Source of the DNA: Escherichia phage vB_EcoS Sa179lw
Reading direction: 5' to 3' (one strand)
DNA: 46,833 nucleotides
Sequence record: NC_054637.1
Shown here: one piece after another, positions 9,312 to 44,416 of the stretch
Position numbering within the stretch: position 1 is the stretch's first letter
Layout of the letters: each line of letters opens with the position of its first letter
Translations under genes and position numbers: made by a program
The notes under the pieces: model-generated
Database searches by the model: none
What the model saw: only the letters and a program-made list of their open reading frames with translations
Told to the model about the DNA's origin: nothing

Positions 9312-9682
9312 ATATGCTTGAACTGGTTGATGCATATCTTCAGGATGCCGGATTATACGATGGCTGGACTTCGCAGTTGCAGTTCTGGAATGACACCGGA
9401 GACGGCAATGAGCAATTTATTGTCCTGCAATCCAACGGCGGCACACAGGTGATGGATGGCCTCGGCGGTGACTTCTATTTCTCGCTGTATATTGTCGGCA
9501 AACAAGGACAATACAACGTTCAGGATGTTGATGCGAAAGCCAATGAAATTATCGAATACATCAAGACGCATCCGATTGATTCATGCGTGAACTACATCCA
9601 GTTGCAGGCTCCGCTCGGACGACCAATGTTGACGGAAGAGAAGCGCCCTGTGCATGAGTTGCTTTTGCGGGTTGTGAAATAA
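9308..9682 (+). CDS. Putative tail terminator / neck protein, 124 aa
   Basis: Synteny; last gene before the terminator and major tail gene. Confidence 0.45.
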   Translation: MNMLELVDAYLQDAGLYDGWTSQLQFWNDTGDGNEQFIVLQSNGGTQVMDGLGGDFYFSLYIVGKQGQYNVQDVDAKANEIIEYIKTHPIDSCVNYIQLQAPLGRPMLTEEKRPVHELLLRVVK

Positions 9683-9686
9683 ATAA

Positions 9687-9712
9687 AGCCGCACGAAGCG
9701 GCCTTATTACTG
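9687..9712 (+). terminator. Candidate terminator
   Basis: Hairpin GCCGCACGAAGCGGC followed by a weak T tract. Confidence 0.4.
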
Positions 9713-9736
9713 GTTTAAGCATTGCCAGCGTGCTTT

Positions 9737-9801
9737 CTTAACATCCAGCCCCGTACCCATACATACCCCTACATATGATTGCGATAATGCTGGATGTTAA
9801 G
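9737..9801. repeat. Perfect 13-bp inverted repeat (CTTAACATCCAGC / GCTGGATGTTAAG) separated by 39 bp
   Basis: Read directly; lies in a 540-bp non-coding gap. Confidence 0.85.
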
Positions 9802-10174
9802 TGTTGTGGCTCTGGTGCCTCCAGATTGCTGGTCGGTAAATCCAGCAGGCAATCGCAAAACCAAATGGAGTGTATCTTTACCTTGCCGCGTGCGCATAGC
9901 CGCATTACCACAACGGAAAGAGCACTGAGACAAACGTCTTTGTCGCCTGCGCAAAGGGTTCGAGTTCCACTGATATGCGCCAATGCCCTCACCTGTTGTG
10001 CGCCCATTATTAATCACACCGGGCCAGTGCGCCGAATTTGTTTACAAGGAATCGGAAGACCTTGCTGATTTACAGGTTATTACGCCGCCATCAGAACAAC
10101 ATCATCGTTTGCATTTATCTTTGTGGTCAGTTTCTAAAAACCCGCAAAGTCGCTCACGAAAACTATCTGAAATA

Positions 10175-10222
10175 CAATCTACACCACAAAATAATACCTG
10201 TCAACACCTGTGATATAATCAC
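10175..10222 (+). promoter_or_regulatory. Candidate late promoter for the major tail gene: AATCTACACCAC ... TGTCAACACC ... TGATATAAT (extended -10)
   Basis: Extended -10 TGA+TATAAT at 10211-10219; poor -35; same architecture as 12184-12234. Confidence 0.5.
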
Positions 10223-10255
10223 CACGTTAGCAGCTAACACAATTCGGAGATCGAA

Positions 10256-10972
10256 ATGGCTATTTGTGCAAATGATAAAGGAGTTCTGGTCGGTCGCATG
10301 ACCAGACTGTTCCTTGCTGAAGGGTGCGGTGACGCAGTTCCGGAGGCAGGAGACTGGAAGTATTTAGGTTCAACCACCAGTAAAGGAGTTGACTACTCGC
10401 CGCAGACCACTACGTCGGAAGCGGATACCGCTGGCGGCTTTGTTTCCACTCTCGTTACCAGCTCTGATATGACCATCAGCGCAGAGGTGGAAATCCGCAA
10501 GAATGACCCGAGCGATGAGTTTGGATTCCATCGTCTTGTTGAGATTTACGCCACTGAACTGAAAGCGCGTCGCCAGCCCTCTCTGTGGGTGCGTCAGGTT
10601 ACTGGTGCAACTATCGTTACCGCGTACTGCAACATTACCAGCATCAGCTACGAAGGTGGCACGAACGACATCGTCACTGGCAGCCTTGAGTTCAAGGTTT
10701 ACGATTCTGACAGCGTTACCGTCGAAAGCCTTGAACCTCTGGCATTCACTACCGACCTGCAATCAACTGGTAGCACTGGCAGCCCGTTAACTGTTGCTGT
10801 TGAAGGTGGCGTTGCTCCTTACACTTATGTATGGCGCAAAGATGGTGTGGTTGTTGGTAGTGAGTCTGGCGCTTCACTGGCAAGCCCAACCGCTGGCGTG
10901 TATACAGTTACCGTTACCGACTCATCTACTGACCCTGAAATTATTATCAGTACGGCCTGCACAGTATCCTGA
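10256..10972 (+). CDS. Major tail protein with C-terminal Ig-like domain, 238 aa
   Basis: Position upstream of tail assembly and tape measure genes; C-terminal segment VAPYTYVWRKDG...GVYTVTVTDS is Ig-like. Confidence 0.6.
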   Translation: MAICANDKGVLVGRMTRLFLAEGCGDAVPEAGDWKYLGSTTSKGVDYSPQTTTSEADTAGGFVSTLVTSSDMTISAEVEIRKNDPSDEFGFHRLVEIYATELKARRQPSLWVRQVTGATIVTAYCNITSISYEGGTNDIVTGSLEFKVYDSDSVTVESLEPLAFTTDLQSTGSTGSPLTVAVEGGVAPYTYVWRKDGVVVGSESGASLASPTAGVYTVTVTDSSTDPEIIISTACTVS

Positions 10973-12251: not shown

Positions 12252-12968
12252 ATGCAAAACATGAGCAATCGCACGCCACTAACAGAAATCGGAGAGATGC
12301 GCATCTCGCTTTCTGACAGGAGTTTTTTCTTTAAGCCATCATTCCGCGCCATGAATGAAATCGGCACACCAAAAGAAATCGTAGAGGTGTACGCAAGACT
12401 CAATGGCATTGATTATGTTGCGCCATTGCAGCACGTCGAATACCTGCCATTTGGCGCTCAGATGCAGGTTATGAAGACCATTAGCAAGCCTGTGTATGGT
12501 CGACACGTGCTGAGTGCCGCCTATATCGTCATGCAGTCATGCTGTGAAGATGATATTTCTGTGCTGATTGGTGGATGGAAGCCAACGCCGCGCGGCGTGC
12601 GATACGTTCCCGGCATCATGCCAGTGAGCGACATTATTATTATTGCGCGCAACCTGATGCAGCATGGCATCATCGGCAAATCACCACTCAAAGTTCCTGA
12701 ACGTCTGGAAGAGCAGGGCAAGAAAACCACAAACGAATTTCATGCGTCACAGTACATTATCTCAGCGCGCACGCATTTCGACATGACGCGTGATGAGGCT
12801 GAAAACCTGTCCATGACAGAGTTTCAGATGATGATCAAGAATAAATATCCGGAGCCGAAGGGGCTGACAAAAGAAGAGCGCGCGGCAGAGTACGATCAGG
12901 CTAAGGCAGACCGTGAGCGCATGAAGGCACTGGCTGAACGCAAAGCGAAAAAAGCGAGGAATATATAA
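12252..12968 (+). CDS. Putative tail assembly chaperone, 238 aa
   Basis: Immediately upstream of, and coupled (TAATG) to, the tape measure gene. Confidence 0.45.
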   Translation: MQNMSNRTPLTEIGEMRISLSDRSFFFKPSFRAMNEIGTPKEIVEVYARLNGIDYVAPLQHVEYLPFGAQMQVMKTISKPVYGRHVLSAAYIVMQSCCEDDISVLIGGWKPTPRGVRYVPGIMPVSDIIIIARNLMQHGIIGKSPLKVPERLEEQGKKTTNEFHASQYIISARTHFDMTRDEAENLSMTEFQMMIKNKYPEPKGLTKEERAAEYDQAKADRERMKALAERKAKKARNI

Positions 12969-19750: not shown

Positions 19751-22297
19751 ATGGCTACCACACCAACTAATAAACCAATTCCGTCAGAAGACCCGCGCGA
19801 CCTCAAGTTTAACGCCGGGAAGATTGATGAGGTAGTGACATCTGATGCGCATTACTATACAGATCGCTTTGGCGTGCGCAGATTTACTATCGAAGGATTT
19901 CAGCACACCGCAGAAGAGGCTATACGCAACTATGGCTATATTACGATGTACAGCTTTGAAGATGGTGCGACACTGACGCTTCCTAATCAGGTGCTGCGCT
20001 ATGAGGCTACTGGCGAATATTATCGTTTTGATGGCGACCTACCAAAAACAGTGCCAGCGGGTTCAACTCCTGAAACTTCTGGTGGAATTGGTTTAGGTAA
20101 GTGGATTAGCGTTGGTGATGCTTCACTGAGGTCCGAATTAAATGGTCAGAACGGTATAAGGATAATTTCTGGTTCTGAAATTATTGTCGATAAATTTAGC
20201 GACGCTCTGCTTCTTTCTGGAGTGAAATCAAAGGTTGTTAGAACGCTATCGCACCATGATGGTAATCATGGTGGTGCGTCATATAAAAGAACAGGAAACA
20301 CAGGAACACCATCAACAGGTTCTGTAGAGTTATTTTATGACGCAGAAGGTAATGAGTGGTCGCTTTCAGTTGATTACATTGATTACTATATGTTTGGTGC
20401 TGAACTTAATGGTACTACCGATGATACACTATCGATAGTTGCAGCGCATACTTACGCAAACACCAATAAAATTCCTATTGTGCAGAATGGTGGTAACGCT
20501 TTCGTCACCCCAAACGACTCCTCCAGGCAGATTGCATTTAACACTGATGCCACATTTACCGGTGGGTTTAAGTTCATCTCAAACTCAATCACTGGCCGGG
20601 GTTTTGTCGTACGTTCTATCGCCGATGAGGTAACTCTCTCACAGAGTGACGTTGTTATTTCTGAATTCGTAGCAACACGGATGAAGATTCCAAGTCTGTC
20701 CGGTTACGAAAACTGTTACGCAGCTATTCAGTCTACGGAAACCGACCTAAATCGTAAACGTGACACCGGCCCGGCATTGCAACTTAAACGTCAACCGGTA
20801 GTAATTGGCAAGGATGGAACTCTTGATGCACCACTGTGGGCGACTTTCAACTCAATATCTGCGATTAAAATTCAAAGTATCCTTCTACCAACCATAACCA
20901 TTGATGGTTTCCGGTTACGGTCTGAGGGTACGTTAACCAATGCCAACCCCTTCGGCGTTCAAAGGAACAACGTTGTCATAAAAAATTTCTACTATGAGAA
21001 AGGCACGACATCGGCAACAATACCGGTTCAATCCCTACTCAGTGTAGAATTCTGCTATAACGTAACCATAGATGGCATCTCATGCGACCCGTTGAGTGTC
21101 GGTATCGTTGATTACAACTACGTTATAAACACATGGACAAGTTCTAAAATTTCCATCAGAAATATGACATCTTTTGATGGCTGGGCGCAGCTTGACGGCA
21201 ACTATTGCCGAAATGTTTCTATTAGTGATTCTGTAATCGACCGTGTCGGCTCTCACTTTAGGTGCTACGACTACACTTTCAAAAACCTCACAGCACGAAG
21301 GGGGCGCTGCATCGCTGTTTCCGGAGGAGGATTACTCCATGTGGAAAACATCAAGGTTTATGCGGAATCATCCACGGTATCCGATGAACAGTACACTGTT
21401 GTAACCATTCGAGGTGACTACGGTGCTGAGTGGGACGGCGCTGTCGTAGTTAAGAATGTTATTTTCGACTTCAGTAACTTCTACTCATCGTCTACTGGCA
21501 TAACGGCATCTATAGTGTCGGCGTTTATCGATTCCACCGTGGGTGCACACGATTTTATGCGTACAGTCGTTATGCCCAAGAGCATATCTATTAAAGATTG
21601 CACTTTCATCATAAACACCATGCCTGGAAGTTATCTTCGTGCATTAGGGGTTGGTTGTACTTCTGCAATAGTCTCTAGTGTTATTTACCCAAGTAATATA
21701 GATGTAGAAAACATAACGTGTGATAACAGTTCTGGTACAAATAAATTTAAGGTCCGCGGGGTGGAATGGAACACTTTACAGCGTTCTGAGATACGTCGAC
21801 ATGACGTGAACATCCGCGTTAAAGGTGTTGTAAATATAGACCCGGCGACCTACGGAGAGACCATACTTGATGACACTACCAGCACAAATACCATCCTTAC
21901 TACCGGAACAAACACCAGAATCTATATGACTGTTCGTGATTGCCCGTGGCAGAGCTTACGCACGGAAGGTAACTATATCCGCACAAAAGTTTATGGTGGG
22001 AGCATTACTTACTTCACAGGCACGGCAGGTACATCAAACCGTATATCTTTTTATGGAACTGAGTTCAACGGAACAAGGTTTCGCGGTGCGATAAAGGTTA
22101 CTATCCAGGACTGTATTTTCAACAATTATGTTGATTACACATCCGCATCTGTTCCCATAGGGAACGGACAGAGTGTTGATACCAACACGACTTTTATCAT
22201 TGGGACTGCTACAGAGTTCGGAGCTACCATAACTGGCACTGCTGTTACGGCCTCAACAGCAAAAACGGGATACTCGCAATCTGGTTACTATCAATAA
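19751..22297 (+). CDS. Tailspike / tail fiber (receptor-binding protein), 848 aa
   Basis: Last large structural ORF; S/T/N/G/V-rich repetitive body consistent with a beta-helix; strong terminator downstream. Confidence 0.6.
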   Translation: MATTPTNKPIPSEDPRDLKFNAGKIDEVVTSDAHYYTDRFGVRRFTIEGFQHTAEEAIRNYGYITMYSFEDGATLTLPNQVLRYEATGEYYRFDGDLPKTVPAGSTPETSGGIGLGKWISVGDASLRSELNGQNGIRIISGSEIIVDKFSDALLLSGVKSKVVRTLSHHDGNHGGASYKRTGNTGTPSTGSVELFYDAEGNEWSLSVDYIDYYMFGAELNGTTDDTLSIVAAHTYANTNKIPIVQNGGNAFVTPNDSSRQIAFNTDATFTGGFKFISNSITGRGFVVRSIADEVTLSQSDVVISEFVATRMKIPSLSGYENCYAAIQSTETDLNRKRDTGPALQLKRQPVVIGKDGTLDAPLWATFNSISAIKIQSILLPTITIDGFRLRSEGTLTNANPFGVQRNNVVIKNFYYEKGTTSATIPVQSLLSVEFCYNVTIDGISCDPLSVGIVDYNYVINTWTSSKISIRNMTSFDGWAQLDGNYCRNVSISDSVIDRVGSHFRCYDYTFKNLTARRGRCIAVSGGGLLHVENIKVYAESSTVSDEQYTVVTIRGDYGAEWDGAVVVKNVIFDFSNFYSSSTGITASIVSAFIDSTVGAHDFMRTVVMPKSISIKDCTFIINTMPGSYLRALGVGCTSAIVSSVIYPSNIDVENITCDNSSGTNKFKVRGVEWNTLQRSEIRRHDVNIRVKGVVNIDPATYGETILDDTTSTNTILTTGTNTRIYMTVRDCPWQSLRTEGNYIRTKVYGGSITYFTGTAGTSNRISFYGTEFNGTRFRGAIKVTIQDCIFNNYVDYTSASVPIGNGQSVDTNTTFIIGTATEFGATITGTAVTASTAKTGYSQSGYYQ

Positions 22298-22299
22298 AA

Positions 22300-22330
22300 C
22301 TAACCCCGCTCCGGCGGGGTTAGTTTTTAT
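22300..22330. terminator. Bidirectional terminator between tailspike and the replication operon
   Basis: Hairpin AACCCCGCTCCGGCGGGGTT followed by AGTTTTT. Confidence 0.7.
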
Positions 22331-22332
22331 CA

Positions 22333-22449
22333 TCAAAACGGAATGTCGTCATCGAAGTCCATTGGAGGCTCATTTCCTCCTTGTGGGCTTTGTTGTTTTG
22401 GTAGCTGTTGCTGTCGTTGCGGTTGTTGTCCTGATTGCTGGCGTGGTTG
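22333..22449 (-). pseudogene. SSB C-terminal tail remnant (Q-rich linker plus GNEPPMDFDDDIPF), in frame directly after the VRR-NUC stop codon
   Basis: Manual minus-strand translation QPRQQSGQQPQRQQQLPKQQSPQGGNEPPMDFDDDIPF; no start codon; upstream TAA at 22450-22452 is the VRR-NUC stop. Confidence 0.5.
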
Positions 22450-22905
22450 TTAAAAACCATCAAATATCAATGGCTCTGATGGTTTTTTATATTTTGGGTA
22501 ATTCATTGCTCTCCAGTCGTTAAATGCCATCATTGCAGCTTCCCAACCAAGGCATACACACGCGAAGGAACCTAATTCTTTTGCCGCCTTTAGGTATGCC
22601 ATTTGACCGGGCTGCCATTTTGATAAAGTATGATCCATTCTTTTCATCTCCATAACGAATGATTGCTTTCCGCTAATAATGATGTCTGACGCCCCGAAGT
22701 TTAGCGCGCCTTTTTTCTTCAGGTTTTCAACTTCATACCCTTTACGCTTTCCTTCATTTGGTACATGAATCATAACTCTTGCAAAGTCAGGGTATAGCTT
22801 CCTTATCTGATTAACAAAAGTCTCCAGTTCAGCGTCTTCTGACGGGCACTTTTTGTTTCTGTAATCTAAATTTCCATATACCTTAACGCCTTCTGGAAAA
22901 ATCAT
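22450..22905 (-). CDS. VRR-NUC domain nuclease, about 151 aa
   Basis: Motifs PNEGKRKG ... GASDIIISGKQSFVMEMKR; ATG at 22905 overlaps the helicase stop (ATGA). Confidence 0.7.
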   Translation of the reverse strand: MIFPEGVKVYGNLDYRNKKCPSEDAELETFVNQIRKLYPDFARVMIHVPNEGKRKGYEVENLKKKGALNFGASDIIISGKQSFVMEMKRMDHTLSKWQPGQMAYLKAAKELGSFACVCLGWEAAMMAFNDWRAMNYPKYKKPSEPLIFDGF

Positions 22906-24767
22906 AATACCCCCCAATACATGCCTTTAACGTTGAAATATTTACTACCCTTATCTCTTCTGAACATAATCACTGATGGCGCGACAGCCTCATCTCTTTT
23001 AGATATTGCATCATCAATTGACATGTTATGTTCACCAAAGCACTTCTCACAAAATTCTTCCCACTCCTTCTTCATCCATTCCTTCTCAGAGTTTGGATTG
23101 TAGAACTTGCTAACAAAAAATGGTTTCTGTTCAATAGCAAATTTTACGTGCACCAAATCTTCACCGCTTGAAACGTAATGCTTCATGATGTTCATCATGG
23201 TTACGCTTGATTGCTTGGTTGCATAAGGAGAAGAATCAAGCCTGTCAGCTTCTTCCTTTAGCTTTTGGTTGGGGTCAATAATTTCAGCTCCGCATGATGT
23301 GCAATTTCTTGCTGCTATATCATTTTCAAACCCACAATCGGGACACTCCTTTACCGACCATTTATAAGTACACCTATGCATTTCCCTTAGTGGTCCATGC
23401 ATAACGTAGTTTTTACACCGCCTACCAAAATGAGCAGGCATAGGCTTGCTCCCAATCTTTTCACCTGACTTATCAAAAATATCAATCATTACTCTGTCAC
23501 CCGCCAAATCCAGCCAGTAACCTTCCTTGTCAACTTCAAGATTTTCAGGATTTGGGCGCACACCAAATTCATTAATAAAGCCACAAAGAGGGCACTTGAC
23601 ATCCATTGGCACGGATGGTTTTTTCCTTGTTGCTTTTATTTCTGGAGTGAATAAGTCCCCAGTCTCAGAAAAGTGGCGCTGAATGTTGCCTGCGTAATCG
23701 CTGACAAGAAAATCTTCCTTGCCTTCATAAAGGCGCGTCCCTCTGCCAATTATTTGCTGGTAGAGCCTTGGTGATTCTGTGGCTCTCATTACTGCTATAT
23801 GATCACAATGAGGAACATCCACCCCTACAGTAAGGATATTCTGGTTAACGATGTATTTAACTTTTTGTGCCTTGAAGTCTGATATTGCCTTATTGCGTTC
23901 CGTTGTCGGCATGTCACCAAAAACATAACTATAAGAACCGGGAGGAAGTGACTCCATTATCTCCATAGCGTGCTTCTTGGTGCTGGCAAAAATCATCGTT
24001 CCGCGCCGATTAACAGAGCGACGGATAATATCTTCAACAATACGTGATGTTTTCCTTCCTTTGCCAACCATCGCCTTTTCAACTGAAGCTGTCGTGTACC
24101 GACCTAACTTATCCTTTTCAAGACAAGACGTATCATACTCGTCAAAAACAGGCTCTGTTACTGGAGGAGTAAGGTATCCGTTTTCGATGAGAAATTTAGC
24201 TTCAAGCTCATAAACGACTTTGTCGTAATATGGGTCTATGGCTGTTTCTTCATCTGTAGGACCGTCGAGGTAATGCTCTTTGTAGATGTATCCAGTTCCA
24301 AGGCGGTAAGGCGTAGCGGTCATTCCAATAACGCGCAGTTTTGGATTGCGACGCTTCATCTCATTAATAATAAATTTAATGGTTGGCGTTATTCCATCAC
24401 ATTCATCAATAATGACAGCACCATACTTATCACCAAACATCTCTATTGAGTTCTTGATTGTAACTGGTGAACCAAACACCACAGGATGACGCAGGTTTTT
24501 GGGACCAGCTTTTGCACTGAACATGCTGGCTGGTTCTCCTGTAAGAAGATATTTAGCGCGATTTTGTGTGACGAGTTCCGCCGTGGGAGCAATGCACAAA
24601 ACTCGCTTTTTGCTGATACCATAAATACGAGATGCAAGCTCTGCTACAACCATAGATTTTCCTGCACCTGTCGGGAGGATGATAACGCATGATGAGATAG
24701 TGCTGCGAATGTGTGCCATAGCCGCGTCAACTGCTTCCTGTTGGTATGGCCTTAGCGTGTATTTCAT
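22902..24767 (-). CDS. Superfamily 2 (DEAD/DEAH-like) helicase with C-terminal Cys-rich zinc-ribbon region, 621 aa
   Basis: Walker A PTGAGKS, motif II DECD, motif III-like TATP; CPLCGF and CPDCGF...CTSCG near the C-terminus. Confidence 0.8.
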   Translation of the reverse strand: MKYTLRPYQQEAVDAAMAHIRSTISSCVIILPTGAGKSMVVAELASRIYGISKKRVLCIAPTAELVTQNRAKYLLTGEPASMFSAKAGPKNLRHPVVFGSPVTIKNSIEMFGDKYGAVIIDECDGITPTIKFIINEMKRRNPKLRVIGMTATPYRLGTGYIYKEHYLDGPTDEETAIDPYYDKVVYELEAKFLIENGYLTPPVTEPVFDEYDTSCLEKDKLGRYTTASVEKAMVGKGRKTSRIVEDIIRRSVNRRGTMIFASTKKHAMEIMESLPPGSYSYVFGDMPTTERNKAISDFKAQKVKYIVNQNILTVGVDVPHCDHIAVMRATESPRLYQQIIGRGTRLYEGKEDFLVSDYAGNIQRHFSETGDLFTPEIKATRKKPSVPMDVKCPLCGFINEFGVRPNPENLEVDKEGYWLDLAGDRVMIDIFDKSGEKIGSKPMPAHFGRRCKNYVMHGPLREMHRCTYKWSVKECPDCGFENDIAARNCTSCGAEIIDPNQKLKEEADRLDSSPYATKQSSVTMMNIMKHYVSSGEDLVHVKFAIEQKPFFVSKFYNPNSEKEWMKKEWEEFCEKCFGEHNMSIDDAISKRDEAVAPSVIMFRRDKGSKYFNVKGMYWGVL

Positions 24768-24777
24768 AAATCAAATC

Positions 24778-24966
24778 CTAATATAAATCGCAATGATTTA
24801 GATCTAAAATATCATCATCTATCTCAGTAACCTGAGACTCATTGAATAATGGAATACCATCTGGACTTCTAAAGCTTGATTTTTCACCTTTTATTACTGT
24901 AAAACCAAATTCTCTCCACGCGGAAAAACTCATGAACTTTTCATGTTTTTCTTTATTTTCTTTCAT
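24778..24966 (-). CDS. Hypothetical protein, 62 aa
   Basis: ATG at 24966 preceded by TTCGAGAGGACATT; lies downstream of a terminator. Confidence 0.4.
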   Translation of the reverse strand: MKENKEKHEKFMSFSAWREFGFTVIKGEKSSFRSPDGIPLFNESQVTEIDDDILDLNHCDLY

Positions 24967-24984
24967 AATGTCCTCTCGAATAAA

Positions 24985-25012
24985 AAGGGCCACGAATGGC
25001 CCTGATTCAAAT
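24985..25012 (-). terminator. Rho-independent terminator or attenuator after the SSB-like gene
   Basis: Minus-strand hairpin GGGCCATTCGTGGCCC followed by TTTTTATT. Confidence 0.6.
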
Positions 25013-25017
25013 CTAAA

Positions 25018-25539
25018 TTAAAACGGAACGTCGTCATCAAAGTCCATCGGTGGTTCATTAGATGACGCTGATTGCTTAGGAGCAGGTGTTGCTTTTGTTT
25101 GTTGACGACTAAAAACACCAGCCACATAGTTACCAGTTTTTTGCTTATCCTCAGACTCCCAAACTCGCAGAAGAAGAATCATTGGGCGATTTGCAAGCGC
25201 ACTTGCAATAGCCAAATCAGTAGGCTCTTTTCCTGACGCCATCAGCTTACCTCCAGCATTTGCATCAATTGCTGCAAGCATAGTGATAGCATTATCCCGC
25301 TGTTTCTCTTTTGAGCTAAACACCTTCAGCTTCTGGAAGATGATTCGATTTTTATACTCACCTTCAAGGATTCGCCACTTAAGATTGAAGAATCGCTCAC
25401 CTTCCCACTGATCATCTTTACATTCCTCAACAGCAGCCAGAACACGGCTGCCATCAGGAATTACCTCAAAACCACCACCCAATTCAAATTCAGATTTAGA
25501 TTCAACAGCTTTACCGTCAGAAAGATTCCAGAAACCCAT
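25018..25539 (-). CDS. ssb: SSB-like single-stranded DNA-binding protein with E. coli-type C-terminal acidic tip, 173 aa
   Basis: C-terminus SSNEPPMDFDDDVPF; ATG at 25539 preceded by AATCGAGAGGACAC; N-terminal domain not obviously a canonical OB fold by eye. Confidence 0.6.
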   Translation of the reverse strand: MGFWNLSDGKAVESKSEFELGGGFEVIPDGSRVLAAVEECKDDQWEGERFFNLKWRILEGEYKNRIIFQKLKVFSSKEKQRDNAITMLAAIDANAGGKLMASGKEPTDLAIASALANRPMILLLRVWESEDKQKTGNYVAGVFSRQQTKATPAPKQSASSNEPPMDFDDDVPF

Positions 25540-25556
25540 TTTTGTGTCCTCTCGAT

Positions 25557-26036
25557 TTATTTGATGATCAGTTTTGGTTTGCCGTCGGTGATGGCACAAC
25601 CCTTAATTTCAATCCCGGCTTTTATCGCATTTTTAATTGCTGCATTATCTGCCGACACTTTCACAACTCGGTACTGCTCAGGAAGCTGCTCAACAGGAAC
25701 AAACACATCAAGAACTGGTGACGGCTTGCCAAGAGTGATACTGAACAACTTACCTTTGATATTTGTCTTTCCTGACGCCATCATGTTCTGACGAAGATAA
25801 TCTTTAAGGTTATCAATCTTCGCAACTAAAACACGCTTACGTTCAGAAAGGCGATCAATCTCTGACTTAAGTCCAGCTTCATCAGCTTCAAGCTCACGAA
25901 TGTAAGCAGCAACCATTTCTGCTTTTCCTTCAAACTCCTCTTCAATAAGATTGATGGTATCTTCAATCTGCTCCCGTGGAATATCCTCCATCGCCAGCAG
26001 TTCATTAAGCTGTTTGGTTATCTCATAGAGATGCAT
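25557..26036 (-). CDS. Siphovirus Gp157-like protein, about 159 aa
   Basis: Sequence pattern and position next to the Sak4-like ATPase and SSB; start (ATG 26036 or GTG 26051) uncertain. Confidence 0.55.
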   Translation of the reverse strand: MHLYEITKQLNELLAMEDIPREQIEDTINLIEEEFEGKAEMVAAYIRELEADEAGLKSEIDRLSERKRVLVAKIDNLKDYLRQNMMASGKTNIKGKLFSITLGKPSPVLDVFVPVEQLPEQYRVVKVSADNAAIKNAIKAGIEIKGCAITDGKPKLIIK

Positions 26037-26847
26037 AATATTTAATCTCACTCAAAAGCGGGTTCTCACCCTTTTCAAAAGGAATTTCAGGCTCAAGGTT
26101 GTATCTGTTTTTTGCATTAACATATCCAACTCTACCATCGCCAGAGGTAATAAGAACTCGCTGACCAGTCTGAACAACCTTTCCAAACTTGGTCACCTGC
26201 CCTTTCTTATCAGTCTCAGTTCCTTTCACGAACTCCTCATTCCTGATGTAAATAACAGCATCGCTAAGATTCACATAGCCAGAAACAGAAGCATCATGCA
26301 TATCAAGTGTGTAAACAGTGTATTCATCAGCATCAGGGCGATTTTTCATCTTTTTAACACCTGCGTGTGCAAGATAAATAATGCTCATTCCTTTTTCTTT
26401 GCGAAGATACTTACATGCATTTATTATTTCAGCGTGCATTTCAGAAACAACAATATATCCTTTGTTGTAACCACCGGCCGCAGAACCTACGTTGTCAACA
26501 CCGTAATTTTCACAAACCTCATGCTCAAACATTGAATGTAGGCTTGTGATTGAGTCAATTACAAGCGTTTTGTAATTATGTTCCTCAGTAATTAATGCGC
26601 GTAGCTGTGACAGCAAATCATCCTTTGTGCTTGTTTTGCGTTTAGCATCAGCTCGCTTCAGTACAGGAAATGAATCAGGTTTCTTCTCATCATCCCAATC
26701 ATCAAAAACACCAGTTATTTCTTCTGCCTGAATGAATACCGGATTTGGGAACAAAGCAGCAAGCGTTGTCTTGCCGACACCAGGTGTTCCAACCAATGTT
26801 ATGATTGGTGCTGCTGGTTTTGGTTTTTGAATCATTGATAAGCTCAT
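26023..26847 (-). CDS. Sak4-like RecA-fold ATPase (AAA_24-type), 274 aa
   Basis: Walker A GTPGVGKTT; size; neighbours Gp157-like and SSB-like. Confidence 0.65.
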   Translation of the reverse strand: MSLSMIQKPKPAAPIITLVGTPGVGKTTLAALFPNPVFIQAEEITGVFDDWDDEKKPDSFPVLKRADAKRKTSTKDDLLSQLRALITEEHNYKTLVIDSITSLHSMFEHEVCENYGVDNVGSAAGGYNKGYIVVSEMHAEIINACKYLRKEKGMSIIYLAHAGVKKMKNRPDADEYTVYTLDMHDASVSGYVNLSDAVIYIRNEEFVKGTETDKKGQVTKFGKVVQTGQRVLITSGDGRVGYVNAKNRYNLEPEIPFEKGENPLLSEIKYYASL

Positions 26848-26981
26848 AGTGTCCTCTCGATTTAACTCAGCATTTCGCTGGTGTGAATTAAAGATACGTC
26901 AATGCGATGGTAAACGCAACACCTTGACGAAAATTTTTTTTGAGTTCATTATTGCTACATACAGATAGTAGAGGTAATCAC

Positions 26982-27224
26982 ATGAAAAGTATTGCAGAAC
27001 AAATAAGGGAAATGGAACAGAAAAAGCTGTCAGAGCTGATTAATTATGTTGGCGGACAGTCTCAACTGGCAAGGTTCCTTGGCGTATCAAAACAGGCGGT
27101 CAATCAATGGGTATCAAGAGGAAGAATTAGTGCTACAGAGGCTATTCATGCTGAAATGCTAACTGGTGGTGCTTTCAGGAAAGAAGATTTAAGGCCAGCC
27201 GTTACAAAGTGGATAGTGAAATGA
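26982..27224 (+). CDS. Cro/YdaS-like HTH DNA-binding protein, about 80 aa
   Basis: HTH segment QSQLARFLGVSKQAVNQWVSRG; encoded opposite to the surrounding operon; own terminator. Confidence 0.6.
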   Translation: MKSIAEQIREMEQKKLSELINYVGGQSQLARFLGVSKQAVNQWVSRGRISATEAIHAEMLTGGAFRKEDLRPAVTKWIVK

Positions 27225-27225
27225 T

Positions 27226-27256
27226 AAAGCCCGCGATTGCGGGCTTTTTTTTTAAA
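27226..27256 (+). terminator. Rho-independent terminator after the HTH gene
   Basis: Hairpin AAAGCCCGCGATTGCGGGCTTT followed by TTTTTTTT. Confidence 0.7.
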
Positions 27257-27647
27257 TTCCTTTTGAGCTTAAACTATCTTTCTCACGCCTTCCGATATAC
27301 TCTTTGCTTACATCATCATACAAAACACCAAACGCCTTGCAGAAATTAAATAGCGCGTCACCTGCGAATACTTCGCTCGGATGCCAGCTTCCTGATTTCA
27401 TTGCAACATCCCTGTATGATGCTGTTAATATACCGACATTGTTTTTGTGTTTTATCCTGCAAAACAAAACGTCATCATCAATGCAGACTCCCATATTGCA
27501 ACGGAACACGGGAAACTTCCAGTAGTAAACCTCCATCAGGTGTTTTCCTGTCATCAGGGAGATGGCGTTGTTATGTGCATGCTCAGGATTTTCTGATTCA
27601 AAGTAGTCATACAACCCTTTCATCACCAGAAACTTGTAGTTAATCAT
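27252..27647 (-). CDS. Hypothetical protein, 131 aa
   Basis: ORF track; coupled to the primase-polymerase gene. Confidence 0.5.
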   Translation of the reverse strand: MINYKFLVMKGLYDYFESENPEHAHNNAISLMTGKHLMEVYYWKFPVFRCNMGVCIDDDVLFCRIKHKNNVGILTASYRDVAMKSGSWHPSEVFAGDALFNFCKAFGVLYDDVSKEYIGRREKDSLSSKGI

Positions 27648-29977
27648 ATTTCAACCTCATCATTTGTTAATTTGTAAATAACTACAGCATTGCTTGTTCT
27701 TTTTGCGCTTTCATCTTTCTCAATAACACCATCTTCAATAAGTTTCTCTATACATCTTTTCACATCTTCGCGTTTATATCCGCCTTCTTTTGCCACGCCT
27801 CTAACTATTGCAGTTTTAGTCATTCCACGCTTCACATATTCTTTAACCATTGAGAAAATACCTTCAATTCTTTCTTCCATGGCTTTAGACTTCGCTCCGG
27901 CTATACTATCAGCACGCATCATCAGGTCGCTTGTTGATTTGATTGTTAATGCTACTGCATATCGCAAGTGCTCCATGGTTATAACTCCGGTATCGCACGC
28001 AAGAATGCCAGCAATCTTTGCAACTTTAACAGCACATCTGTTTATCAAAGGGTGATAACCAGTCCCGTTCTCTACATGCTTTCTTGCAATAGTCTTAATC
28101 CATGAGAAAAACTCTTTAGCAAGCCGTGACACCTCTGGTGTGGCCTTTATAATTCGTCTTTCATTTTGACTGATGATTGAATCGGTCCAGTTTTTGTATC
28201 CGGCAGCTCCTCCATTTATTATTGTTTTTATGGTCATTTGCATATCCATCGGGAGATCGCAGTAATTAACATTTTCGTTTTCGTCAGCAATCTCCTGCAA
28301 CTCCTGCATAATCATTGCACGACCCATAAGCCCTGACTTGATGTTCTCCTCAGTAATTAGGCGCTTGAACTGGTCATCAGTAGAAACACCGAAAATTGAG
28401 AAAAATGGATTTCTTATCGCTCCGTCAATTCGGTTTATGACTTCATCAAACTGACGCTTAATGTCAGCAGGGTCAGCTTGAATTTCGTTTTCTTCAATAG
28501 CCATCAACAACATAGCTTTTCTCTTTTCGAAAGCCTTAATGAACTCCTCTGTCACTCGTTGATCGCAATAAAGAACTTCAGATGTGTAAGCCTCCATGAT
28601 GGCACCAGCGGTTGCCATGTTGTACTCGCTTACCTTCTGACCAACAACACTCCCAAGTTTTATACCAATCTCATCCATGATGAGATTAAACATCTGGTTA
28701 GCACAAAGACCTTCATATATTGCACGCTCAGAGCGTATCTTGCCTGCAACTGTCTTACTCAGCCCTGAACAATCAATTATCTTTTGTAACGCTGCAAGAA
28801 CATCACCCTTACCAGAGCCCGAACCAGCGATACCAATGGCAAACAGATTTGGCAAAGCCTTCCTGTTTGTAAGATAAATATCAGATGACGCTCCGCAAAT
28901 CATGGATGCAGCGTGCAACGCAGCGAGTGCCGAAATGTTTTCACGCTTCTCTGCACAGTTCTTATTAATCCATGCTGTAAGACGCCCAACAAATCCTGGT
29001 GGATAACGAACATCAACACTCTTGTACTCTATTGGGCATTCACCAACACCCATTGCCATTTCTCTCTCGAAAGACTCAAGCTTCTCAATTTCCTCTGGCG
29101 TAGCCTCAAAAGTTACTTGCCTTACCCATCCACCCTCTTGTGCGAGATAAACCAGCGTTGCTTCTGTTATCTTTTCGCTAACACCGTCCTTACCGAATGA
29201 GTGCCATTTAGCGTCCATTTCCTCAGCTCTGTACTTGCTGAACTGAGAAGACCAGTTATCCCAAAGATCAAAACCATTGCCATCGGTGGCTTCGTGGATA
29301 GCCATCCCAACATGAATCCACGGGTCATACTCGTCTCCATCTTTGATGTATTTGAGCATATCCTCCATTTCGGCAATGCTGTAATTTTTACTATCAAGCG
29401 TAAAAATCTCATCTTCCGTTCGTTCAGGCCTAAGCAAAAGCTCAATAAGTTCAGATGGCGCTTCCGTTATCTCTGAAGGAGAACCGTGCTCTGCTTCGTA
29501 AAAGTTTCCTGACTTATGGAAAGAACCGCAGCCAATAACGAAACCAGATGATTTAAAGTCAATACCTTTAAATCTCCTGTCGTGAGATCGCAGCTTCACA
29601 TCAGCAGGAAGCTTGTAATAGATATGGCGACCACATCCACCAGTCTTAACCGTAAAACCAGCTTCGTCAGCAAGTTCAACATCTAACGTATCACAAAGCG
29701 CCTCGTATCCATCATTACCGCCATTTCTTGGGTCAATATCAACAACAAGGTACCCATTCACAAGAACGCCGAATGACTGTAACTTGCCATACTTAGCCAT
29801 GCTTTCAATCTGCTCATCATCCCACTGGACACCAAGCTGCCAGTTACTCATAACCGGATGCTTTCCAGCAGCCTTACATTCCGGATTTCCACAGGTACAG
29901 TTGCGATCCTCATCCATCGGATGAATGTCGATAATAGGGAAGCCGCATTTACGGTAATCTTCATAACCAATCATCAT
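27644..29977 (-). CDS. Bifunctional DNA primase-polymerase (PrimPol N-terminal domain plus C-terminal helicase-like region), 777 aa
   Basis: N-terminal primase-polymerase-like motifs (VVDIDPRNGG, KTGGCGRHIYY); large C-terminal domain; first large gene of the leftward operon. Confidence 0.75.
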   Translation of the reverse strand: MMIGYEDYRKCGFPIIDIHPMDEDRNCTCGNPECKAAGKHPVMSNWQLGVQWDDEQIESMAKYGKLQSFGVLVNGYLVVDIDPRNGGNDGYEALCDTLDVELADEAGFTVKTGGCGRHIYYKLPADVKLRSHDRRFKGIDFKSSGFVIGCGSFHKSGNFYEAEHGSPSEITEAPSELIELLLRPERTEDEIFTLDSKNYSIAEMEDMLKYIKDGDEYDPWIHVGMAIHEATDGNGFDLWDNWSSQFSKYRAEEMDAKWHSFGKDGVSEKITEATLVYLAQEGGWVRQVTFEATPEEIEKLESFEREMAMGVGECPIEYKSVDVRYPPGFVGRLTAWINKNCAEKRENISALAALHAASMICGASSDIYLTNRKALPNLFAIGIAGSGSGKGDVLAALQKIIDCSGLSKTVAGKIRSERAIYEGLCANQMFNLIMDEIGIKLGSVVGQKVSEYNMATAGAIMEAYTSEVLYCDQRVTEEFIKAFEKRKAMLLMAIEENEIQADPADIKRQFDEVINRIDGAIRNPFFSIFGVSTDDQFKRLITEENIKSGLMGRAMIMQELQEIADENENVNYCDLPMDMQMTIKTIINGGAAGYKNWTDSIISQNERRIIKATPEVSRLAKEFFSWIKTIARKHVENGTGYHPLINRCAVKVAKIAGILACDTGVITMEHLRYAVALTIKSTSDLMMRADSIAGAKSKAMEERIEGIFSMVKEYVKRGMTKTAIVRGVAKEGGYKREDVKRCIEKLIEDGVIEKDESAKRTSNAVVIYKLTNDEVEI

Positions 29978-30189
29978 TTAATTCTCCGAACAGATACTTC
30001 ACCAAACCCCGCCTTTCTTGTTACAAAAACCCATGAGTTATCTTTCGCAACGCAACACAGACTTGCTCTGAATTTTTCAATACTGCTATTGGCGCGGAAA
30101 TCATCAATAATAAAAAACCGCACATCACCAACAGACATCCCATTAACAAACTCATACGCCTCAGCCATCGCACTACCAAAACGATACAT
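29974..30189 (-). CDS. Hypothetical protein, 71 aa; first gene of the leftward replication operon
   Basis: ORF track; ATGA coupling to the primase-polymerase gene. Confidence 0.45.
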   Translation of the reverse strand: MYRFGSAMAEAYEFVNGMSVGDVRFFIIDDFRANSSIEKFRASLCCVAKDNSWVFVTRKAGFGEVSVRRIK

Positions 30190-30214
30190 AACAACACCCT
30201 CTCCAGTAATCTAA

Positions 30215-30250
30215 ATACAATATACCAACATTCCTATAATTAGGCAACAT
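30215..30250 (-). promoter_or_regulatory. Candidate leftward early promoter: TTGCCT, 17-bp spacer, TATATT (minus strand)
   Basis: Read on the minus strand at 30242-30247 and 30219-30224. Confidence 0.5.
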
Positions 30251-30356
30251 ACTCAATACACACAAAACAAATGAACAGCGTTGACAAGAAAAAACAAAAG
30301 GTGTATCAATACAGGTATGTTGTGTAAGTGGTTGTTTTGAAAAGAAAAAGAATCCG

Positions 30357-30591
30357 ATTTGCCAGCTATTTGCCAGCTATTTTCCAATGATAAGTTACTG
30401 ATTTTTAACTATTTACCCTAATTTCCTATTTGACACGGCTCTAAACGATATTTGATGTCCGGGAATAAAATTTATAGACCACCCGTGGCAAATAGGGCAA
30501 ATAGAAAATAGAAAAAAACAAAAGCAAAAACAGCAACTTAAAAACAAAAAAGTTTGGCAAATAGAAAGAAAATAGAAAGAAAATAGAAAAC
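30357..30591. repeat. Iteron cluster: tandem TTGCCAGCTAT x2, GGCAAATAG x3, AAAATAGAAAG x3, with A-rich tract; candidate replication origin or operator array
   Basis: Direct reading; non-coding; flanked by divergent promoters and an AT-rich stretch at 30640-30780. Confidence 0.7.
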
Positions 30592-30789
30592 AGGAAACAA
30601 ACCACAAGTAACCAGCTTAACTGCTGGTTTTCGTGTTTCTGTGAACTAAGTTATTAATATCTATAATAAATATAAAGAAGATCTTAATATACTTTATAGA
30701 TGTAATAAACAAAGGTTACTATTAATAATATATGTAACTATATGCTTAAGCTAGCGTTCACTAACATCTATTAATATTTTTCTCCATGT

Positions 30790-30825
30790 GCATTGACGTA
30801 GAATCATTGTTGATGTAGATTAAAA
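30790..30825 (+). promoter_or_regulatory. Rightward early promoter: TTGACG, 17-bp spacer, TAGATT
   Basis: -35 at 30793-30798, -10 at 30816-30821; carries inverted copies of the ATCTAC(A/G)TC motif. Confidence 0.6.
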
Positions 30826-30851
30826 TCATCGGAACAAATGAGGAATCAAAG

Positions 30852-43349: not shown

Positions 43350-43655
43350 TCACTCTGCTGGTAATGTTGTTGGCTCATCAACAGATTCCTCGACCGCAGC
43401 TTCAACGATGCGCACCAACGAACACTCAAGGTTCGGCGCATTATAATTGCCAGCCAGAAACAGCACGCTACCAGTGCTAATCAACACCTGTTTTGCGCTT
43501 GCCTGCGACAGATTCTGCACGATGAATTGTGCTGTTTCGGTACCAATTTTTAGCACTGCGCTGCCGTCGCTGTTCAGTGATACCAGTTGTGCGGATGTGT
43601 CAGCGATGTTGGTGTAGTTCGCGTTTCGTTGCGCGATTGTGATGTCTGTGAACAT
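43350..43655 (-). CDS. Hypothetical protein, 101 aa
   Basis: ORF track; ATG lies one nt after the stop of the upstream reading frame. Confidence 0.5.
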   Translation of the reverse strand: MFTDITIAQRNANYTNIADTSAQLVSLNSDGSAVLKIGTETAQFIVQNLSQASAKQVLISTGSVLFLAGNYNAPNLECSLVRIVEAAVEESVDEPTTLPAE

Positions 43656-43656
43656 A

Positions 43657-43877
43657 TTAGCCTCTTACGTTTAATTTGATTTTTCCATCCACGTCGCGTG
43701 ATGCACACTCAACAGTGATTGTTAACTTGGTGATCTCTTCGACGTCTGCATCAAGAATCAAGCGGATGCAACCACCAACTATTCTACCATCCTGATCAAC
43801 AACGCGAATTTTATCATCGACTCTTTCAACGTGGAGCCAGACTTTTTTTCGTCACACCCGTTATTGAGGATTGCCAT
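43657..43877 (-). CDS. Hypothetical protein needing a -1 frameshift at A_AAA_AAG (or containing a homopolymer indel); fused product about 73 aa
   Basis: ATG at 43877 after GGAGAG; frame 0 stops after 32 codons; the -1 frame continues without a start codon to a stop at 43657-43659. Confidence 0.4.
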
Positions 43878-44416
43878 TATTTAATCTCTCCATTCAGTTC
43901 ATTGACAATTAACGTCGCATAGCCAGCAATATCTTTCCAGCTATCATCATATGTCGGGTCGCCATTCAGGATGCGCCCAATCTTGTGCTGAATCATGTCT
44001 AGCGCCTCGCGTTGGCTTGGCGTCAGATTGTGCCACCCATCCACTTCGCGCATCACATCTTTCAGCTCCTGCATGATTTCAGCACCGTCTTTGAACTTAC
44101 CGTATCGACTGCCGCGTTCGGTGATGAGTTGCTCAGTAGTATCAGCTTCCGGCGCGCCAATGCAATCATTGAGGTCTTGTTCGTCGTTGATTGGTTTACG
44201 ATGAGCGATAACCTCATACATATCCATGTCTTCGACAAATTGATTAACGCGACCATTGTTGGCAACATCTTGATATGCGCCATATTTATTCAAGTGCTCA
44301 ACGAAATAATATTTCGAATCAATCAACCTCCCCTTGAGAGTCGCCCAGTCTGGCGCACCATCAAAATCCTTCTCGCAACCTTTCAGGTATTTCCACGCTT
44401 TCATTTCTCTCTCCAC
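43877..44416 (-). CDS. Hypothetical protein, 179 aa
   Basis: ORF track; TAATG coupling downstream. Confidence 0.5.
   Translation of the reverse strand: MEREMKAWKYLKGCEKDFDGAPDWATLKGRLIDSKYYFVEHLNKYGAYQDVANNGRVNQFVEDMDMYEVIAHRKPINDEQDLNDCIGAPEADTTEQLITERGSRYGKFKDGAEIMQELKDVMREVDGWHNLTPSQREALDMIQHKIGRILNGDPTYDDSWKDIAGYATLIVNELNGEIK

Follow-up and report, generated by a model that had tools for sequence, protein, structure and literature searches.

The window, the whole stretch of 46,833 nucleotides of Escherichia phage vB_EcoS Sa179lw (NC_054637.1) that was analysed, carries a short minus-strand coding stretch split between two reading frames (Table 1). The start codon described in an earlier note on this DNA, at 43877-43875, shares its first base with the TAA stop (43879-43877) of the 175-aa gene upstream, forming TAATG. 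The ribosome-binding site named in the same note, GGAGAG, occupies 43891-43886, 8 nt 5' of the ATG. Frame 0 is read as reported for 32 codons (MAILNNGCDEKKSGSTLKESMIKFALLIRMVE), and its TAG stop occupies 43781-43779. The codons GAC GAA AAA AAG place the heptamer A_AAA_AAG in frame in the canonical X_XXY_YYZ phase at 43848-43842, and the run of seven A residues is indeed the plus-strand T run at 43843-43849; the minus-strand sequence here reads ...GGAGAGATTAAATAATGGCAATCCTCAATAACGGGTGTGACGAAAAAAAGTCTGGCTCC... The -1 frame opens just after a TGA at 43854-43852. Read from GTC 43842, it gives 61 residues (VWLHVERVDDKIRVVDQDGRIVGGCIRLILDADVEEITKLTITVECASRDVDGKIKLNVRG), with the TAA at 43659-43657 one base before the ATG of the next gene at 43655, again as the note had described. 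A shift at the heptamer would yield a product of 73 aa.

Table 1 Features at the split small gene of Sa179lw and their positions in the window
Feature	Position	Strand	Basis or remark
Copy of a conserved accessory gene of 73 codons, very probably disrupted by a frameshift	43657..43877	-	Full-length homologues, PHROG 38236 match
Frame-0 segment: ATG, 32 codons, TAG; family match in the first 12 codons only, other 20 out of frame	43779..43877	-	
A7 run followed by G; A_AAA_AAG at 43848-43842	43842..43849	-	One base shorter here than in every relative
-1 frame segment: 61 codons VWLHVERVDD...KLNVRG + TAA; conserved protein body	43657..43842	-	Translation, homologue alignment
Upstream gene, 175 aa, DUF6378 domain, AVP40262 = gp78	43877..44404	-	ORF list, domain match
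Downstream gene, 101 aa, AVP40261 = gp77, PHROG 16624; own AGAGG Shine-Dalgarno	43350..43655	-	

The statement that the -1 frame lacks a start codon holds for ATG and GTG but not for TTG, which is present at 43761 and gives a 34-aa ORF. As an alternative start this TTG was rejected because its product lacks the conserved N-terminal half, and a GTG at 43857-43855 was rejected because the TGA comes immediately after it. The proposal that the -1 frame is coding is borne out by homologues that match it at E ~1e-37. The GenBank and RefSeq annotation of Sa179lw (MH023293) skips the 221 nt between gp77 and gp78, and homologues of the skipped stretch are annotated CDSs in related phages. Exact-sequence matches gave the accessions AVP40260, AVP40261 (gp77), AVP40262 (gp78) and AVP40263-40265 for the flanking neighbours, and none of the 32-aa, 34-aa and 73-aa conceptual products occurs in a collection of 15 billion proteins. 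The consecutive accessions of gp77 and gp78, together with the absence of the conceptual products from this collection, indicate that 43657-43877 is unannotated in the record.

Comparisons with relatives showed one uninterrupted ORF at the equivalent place. A single ORF of 70-73 codons is present at all 20 loci from isolates and metagenomes (16 close and 4 distant, with 12 distinct sequences). Similarly, all 14 protein clusters recovered by a search with the conceptual 73-aa product are single ORFs of 72-73 aa, with 74-95% identity over the full length. The phages ClaudiaMuster_Bas77, SandraMuster_Bas78, SusanneMuster_Bas79 and EcoIv28_Lewi have 95-96% nucleotide identity to the Sa179lw stretch, which is annotated as one 73-codon CDS with the same two neighbour genes in the first three (hereafter Bas77, Bas78 and Bas79) and is an unannotated ORF in EcoIv28_Lewi (hereafter Lewi). 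Over all 73 residues, the conceptual product has 93-96% identity to these three CDSs and the Lewi ORF. The distant homologues Akira gp57, Skate gp22, IME207 gp26 and ZC2 gp23 are single CDSs of 70-71 aa with 34-39% identity, and the gene order around them is the same as in Sa179lw.

The conceptual 73-aa product matches PHROG 38236 (E 2e-14, residues 10-71 against profile positions 7-68 of 70), a small phage protein family without assigned function; the 32-aa frame-0 product has no PHROG match. A Pfam search with the 73-aa product gave nothing above threshold, and a hit to SufE (17 bits, cut-off 27) was disregarded as sub-threshold. An AlphaFold2 model of the family, built from the 14-sequence alignment, has a pLDDT of 56 and a pTM of 0.30, values too low to base a fold search on.

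Alignment with Bas77-79 and Lewi showed a single-column gap in Sa179lw, located precisely at the A-run. The site reads GAT GAA GAA AAG GTT TGG in Bas77-79, GAT GAA GAC AAA GTT TGG in Lewi and GAC GAA AAA AAG TCT GG in Sa179lw. Across the relatives the site takes the forms GAA GAA AAG GTT, GAA GAC AAA GTT, GAA AGC AAG GTA or GAA AAA AAG GTT, and Sa179lw is one base shorter than every one of them within AAAAAAA(G)G. Among the 14 protein clusters, residue 11 is variable (K, E, D, N or S), and V13, W14 and L15, the first residues past the junction, are invariant. Adding back one A or one G gives ...CDEKKVWLHVE..., which is identical at that place to the relative P0004. This relative (locus L009) is the only one with the heptamer A_AAA_AAG, which it carries as GAT GAA AAA AAG GTT TGG in an ORF that stays in frame 0. 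Thus, the heptamer can sit in the gene without a frame change, and the motif is neither conserved nor coupled to one. The same sequence indicates that Sa179lw may have lost a G (AAAAAAAGG to AAAAAAAG) and not an A (A8 to A7). No second copy of the allele turned up in scans of viral_contigs and metagenome_contigs with the window-specific flank, with and without a variable A-run, and exact-protein matches to the Sa179lw 101-aa and 175-aa neighbour genes returned no other contigs.

The small gene is unevenly distributed. It is present in two of the ten contigs that carry an identical 64-aa neighbour gene, and the other eight are cleanly without it, their flanking genes abutting. The relative whose upstream gene is most similar to the 175-aa gene (98% identity) does not have it either, and 42 phage records contain a homologue of the small gene compared with 153 that match the flanks. 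This distribution marks the gene as a dispensable accessory cassette, whose loss of function would be tolerated. In most of the close relatives compared (L024-L034), the DUF6378 gene is followed directly by the 101/102-aa gene at a TAATG junction; in other relatives the 70-73-codon gene is inserted precisely between the two. The upstream DUF6378 gene (43880-44404, minus strand) is itself highly mosaic, with versions of 143, 152, 154, 159, 163, 173, 175, 202 and 214 aa. The 175-aa version of Sa179lw is found in only one relative cluster at an identity of at least 90%, and shares 46% identity with the 143-aa gene of Bas77 in the N-terminal half only.

Judged from these comparisons, 43657-43877 is very probably a conserved, dispensable 73-codon gene disrupted by a single-base indel in or next to the homopolymer. 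The homologues have one ORF that is colinear with both frame segments, and the difference is a single base in the homopolymer whose restoration gives the family protein. The loss of one base, from A8 to A7 or from AAAAAAAGG to AAAAAAAG, would put the gene body in the -1 frame relative to the start codon, and the in-phase A_AAA_AAG would be an automatic remnant of the deletion rather than an evolved recoding signal. Since the heptamer would be left over in both deletion scenarios, its place at the frame junction needs no further explanation. The suggestion of a mis-called homopolymer length, made in the earlier note as the alternative to recoding, is upheld in that Sa179lw is shorter by one base than all relatives; however, the base may be a G, and the change may be a genuine mutation. 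The locus belongs to the class of ordinary homopolymer-associated frameshift-disrupted genes. The one-base length difference and its place, the single ORF of all relatives, the dispensability of the gene and the lack of stimulators are observed, whereas how the indel arose and how much leaky decoding takes place are inferred.

An evolved programmed -1 frameshift of the dnaX or IS type, which was the other proposal, would fix the ratio between a 32-aa frame-0 product and a trans-frame product of 73 aa. This reading draws support from the canonical A_AAA_AAG in the correct phase, from a -1 frame that is open and coding and has no ATG or GTG, and from a weak Shine-Dalgarno-like GGGUG 6 nt 5' of the heptamer. 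However, the two-frame layout is unique to Sa179lw; all relatives carrying the gene have a single ORF, and the layout was seen in none of the 20 loci, 14 protein clusters and 7 annotated phage genomes. Besides an X_XXY_YYZ heptamer in zero-frame phase, which Sa179lw has, programmed sites are recognized by a stimulatory element (a hairpin or pseudoknot 5-9 nt 3', a Shine-Dalgarno-like sequence ~10 nt 5') and by conservation of the heptamer and the two-frame architecture in homologues, neither of which was found here. No stimulatory hairpin or pseudoknot of the kind named in the earlier note lies 3' of the heptamer, where the sequence folds no better than shuffled sequence: the first 48 nt give -5.7 kcal/mol (z = +1.1 against dinucleotide shuffles) and the first 83 nt give -16.5 kcal/mol (z = +0.5). 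The sequence 3' of the heptamer is nearly identical in relatives without the shift, indicating that no part of it evolved for frameshifting. GGGUG, the sole Shine-Dalgarno-like string upstream, corresponds to Gly-Cys codons that are also present in relatives without a slippery site, and its spacing is below the ~10 nt of dnaX. Furthermore, the 20 frame-0 codons past the heptamer are conserved coding sequence read out of frame, and their product has no homologue. A programmed site at this locus is thus highly improbable.

The sequence AAAAAAG occurs 10 times on the two strands of Sa179lw, compared with 11.9 +/- 2.9 expected from shuffles. The count matches chance, and the motif itself is therefore unremarkable. 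Bacterial RNA polymerase is reported to slip efficiently on runs of ~9 A or T (PMC5009743); the Sa179lw run has 7 A, below the ~9 or more A/T that characterize transcriptional slippage. Another AAAAAAG, at 12948-12954 on the plus strand, lies 8 nt before the stop of a 238-aa gene and directly 5' of the 980-aa tape-measure gene, whose ATG overlaps that stop (TAATG). This is a position where a tail-chaperone frameshift might be expected. The string is probably not a tail-chaperone shift site, its phase being AAA AAA G and not X_XXY_YYZ.

With base loss as the preferred reading, the deletion may be a real mutation, arising by replication slippage and fixed in the isolate, or a miscall in the deposited sequence; the evidence leans slightly to the former. 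A pure sequencing or assembly artefact, which is a sub-case of the base-loss explanation, would mean that the real phage has A8 (GAA AAA AAA GTC) or A7GG (GAA AAA AAG GTC) and an intact gene. The length difference sits precisely in a homopolymer tract, the depositors left the stretch unannotated without a pseudogene mark, and the rest of the gene is undecayed, all of which speak for an artefact. The first 36 nt of the small gene contain 7 differences from Bas77, and the next 183 nt a single substitution. Such an undecayed copy is consistent with an event in the very recent past, with an artefact or with continued selection. The uneven spread of the Bas77 differences suggests a recombination boundary close to the 5' end of the gene.

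Against an artefact stands the state of the other genes. A screen for frameshifts using six-frame ORFs mostly flagged non-coding frames and was repeated with annotated CDSs. When ~110 annotated CDSs of Bas77 and Akira were compared with Sa179lw, each shared gene proved intact in one frame and no further conserved gene was frameshifted; the partial matches are module replacements and not changes of frame. The absence of other broken conserved genes speaks against a general tendency of the assembly to indels. A real mutation is thereby slightly favoured over a miscall, with no support gained for programmed recoding. The laboratory that described Sa179lw reportedly sequenced its phages on Illumina instruments, and an Illumina consensus rarely miscalls runs of 7-8 nt, which also argues against an artefact. 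Other long homopolymers are few. T8 (26934-26941) and T9 (27245-27253) are situated within intergenic DNA or at its edge, so homopolymer accuracy cannot be judged independently from them. An artefact is a quite credible account of the indel, with somewhat less than an even chance.

Several other features of the genome were observed in the course of these comparisons. The T8 and T9 runs, the longest homopolymers, are separated by ~300 nt within a mostly intergenic stretch that lies between the genes 26023-26847 (minus strand) and 27252-27647 (minus strand), which were called divergent; this stretch may be an AT-rich promoter or an origin-like region. The distal part of the tail fibre and the replication module, at 20140-30850, have little or no similarity to Bas77 or Akira, and many of their CDSs lack a tblastn match. 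The rest of the genome shows 85-99% protein identity, a pattern of large-scale module exchange. At 9682-10256 on the plus strand, a gap of ~570 nt without a convincing ORF separates a 124-aa gene from the major tail protein gene. Within it, 10004-10141 encodes the C-terminal 46 residues of a Bas77_0057-like protein with 89% identity, and the gap may be a gene remnant. In Akira the corresponding place holds a tRNA-Met; ARAGORN found no tRNA anywhere in Sa179lw. A cro-like gene of Sa179lw is reported in the DeepPL paper, where the lifestyle of the phage is called 'questionable' (PMC11521287).

If the deletion is real, standard decoding would yield a useless 32-aa peptide with its last 20 residues out of frame, and in roughly 0.3-4% of translation events unprogrammed -1 slippage would give back exactly the family sequence. 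Few heptamers in E. coli shift as readily as A_AAA_AAG (PMC4066793, PMC5009743); in the absence of stimulators it frameshifts at ~0.3%, and the most favourable 3' context raises this to ~3.7% at most (PMC4066793). Near the start codon of an over-expression vector, C_AAA_AAA gave 25-60% frameshifting (PMC1851650), and leaky decoding at the Sa179lw site could therefore exceed the estimate. Some full-length protein would probably be made from a really deleted gene. Slippage of this sort would count as adventitious or compensatory, as reviewed in PMC5009743, and not as programmed recoding.

A second sub-case of base loss is a real deletion that is functionally compensated, either by incidental slippage at A_AAA_AAG or by a population mixture of A7 and A8 acting as an on/off switch. 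The exact return of the family sequence by a -1 shift and the high shift-proneness of the heptamer are in its favour, and there are documented cases of indels compensated by frameshifting, among them the G-run of the herpesvirus thymidine kinase (PMC5009743). However, the low efficiency expected without stimulators (PMC4066793) weighs against compensation, as does the dispensability of the gene in most relatives, owing to which compensation need not be invoked. Functional compensation is accordingly unlikely. It is likewise improbable that an accessory gene with a real deletion is kept partly on through fresh A_AAA_AAG slippage or A7/A8 toggling in the population; if true, the locus would be a snapshot of a recoding site or phase-variable switch born from a homopolymer indel.

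For annotation, the preferred reading of a base lost at the homopolymer means that the 221 nt between gp77 and gp78 of MH023293 would contain a conserved small gene in frameshifted form, and the stretch should be marked as frameshifted or corrected after resequencing. The locus also calls for caution. A textbook slippery heptamer at a frame junction arises automatically when an A-run loses a base, so the motif alone is no evidence of programmed recoding, and it is the comparison with relatives that decides between programmed recoding and base loss.

In comparison with E. coli dnaX, the Sa179lw site has the same heptamer in the same codon phase and the same single tRNA-Lys in the host translation apparatus. 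However, the dnaX site is conserved and has two stimulators, an upstream Shine-Dalgarno-like sequence and a downstream stem-loop, whereas in Sa179lw there is no downstream structure and GGGUG is incidental. Frameshifting at dnaX reaches ~50%, compared with the ~0.3-4% expected at the Sa179lw site, and the Sa179lw two-frame layout is common to no homologue. The 'savior indel' mutants of the herpes simplex thymidine kinase G-run likewise carry a homopolymer indel at which slippage can restore some full-length protein (PMC5009743). The low-level herpesvirus product is demonstrably selected, whereas the Sa179lw gene is missing from most relatives and a need for its product is only conjectural. The attB1 C_AAA_AAA of pDEST17 is similarly an unselected A-rich heptamer near a start codon that rescues single-base deletions (PMC1851650), but it shifts at 25-60% in an over-expression vector, whereas the shift level of the Sa179lw phage gene is only estimated. 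The site also resembles the homopolymer frameshift pseudogenes and miscalls of phage records, in which an A-run that differs in length by one base likewise splits an ORF found intact in all relatives and the stretch is left unannotated, and from this class Sa179lw is indistinguishable.
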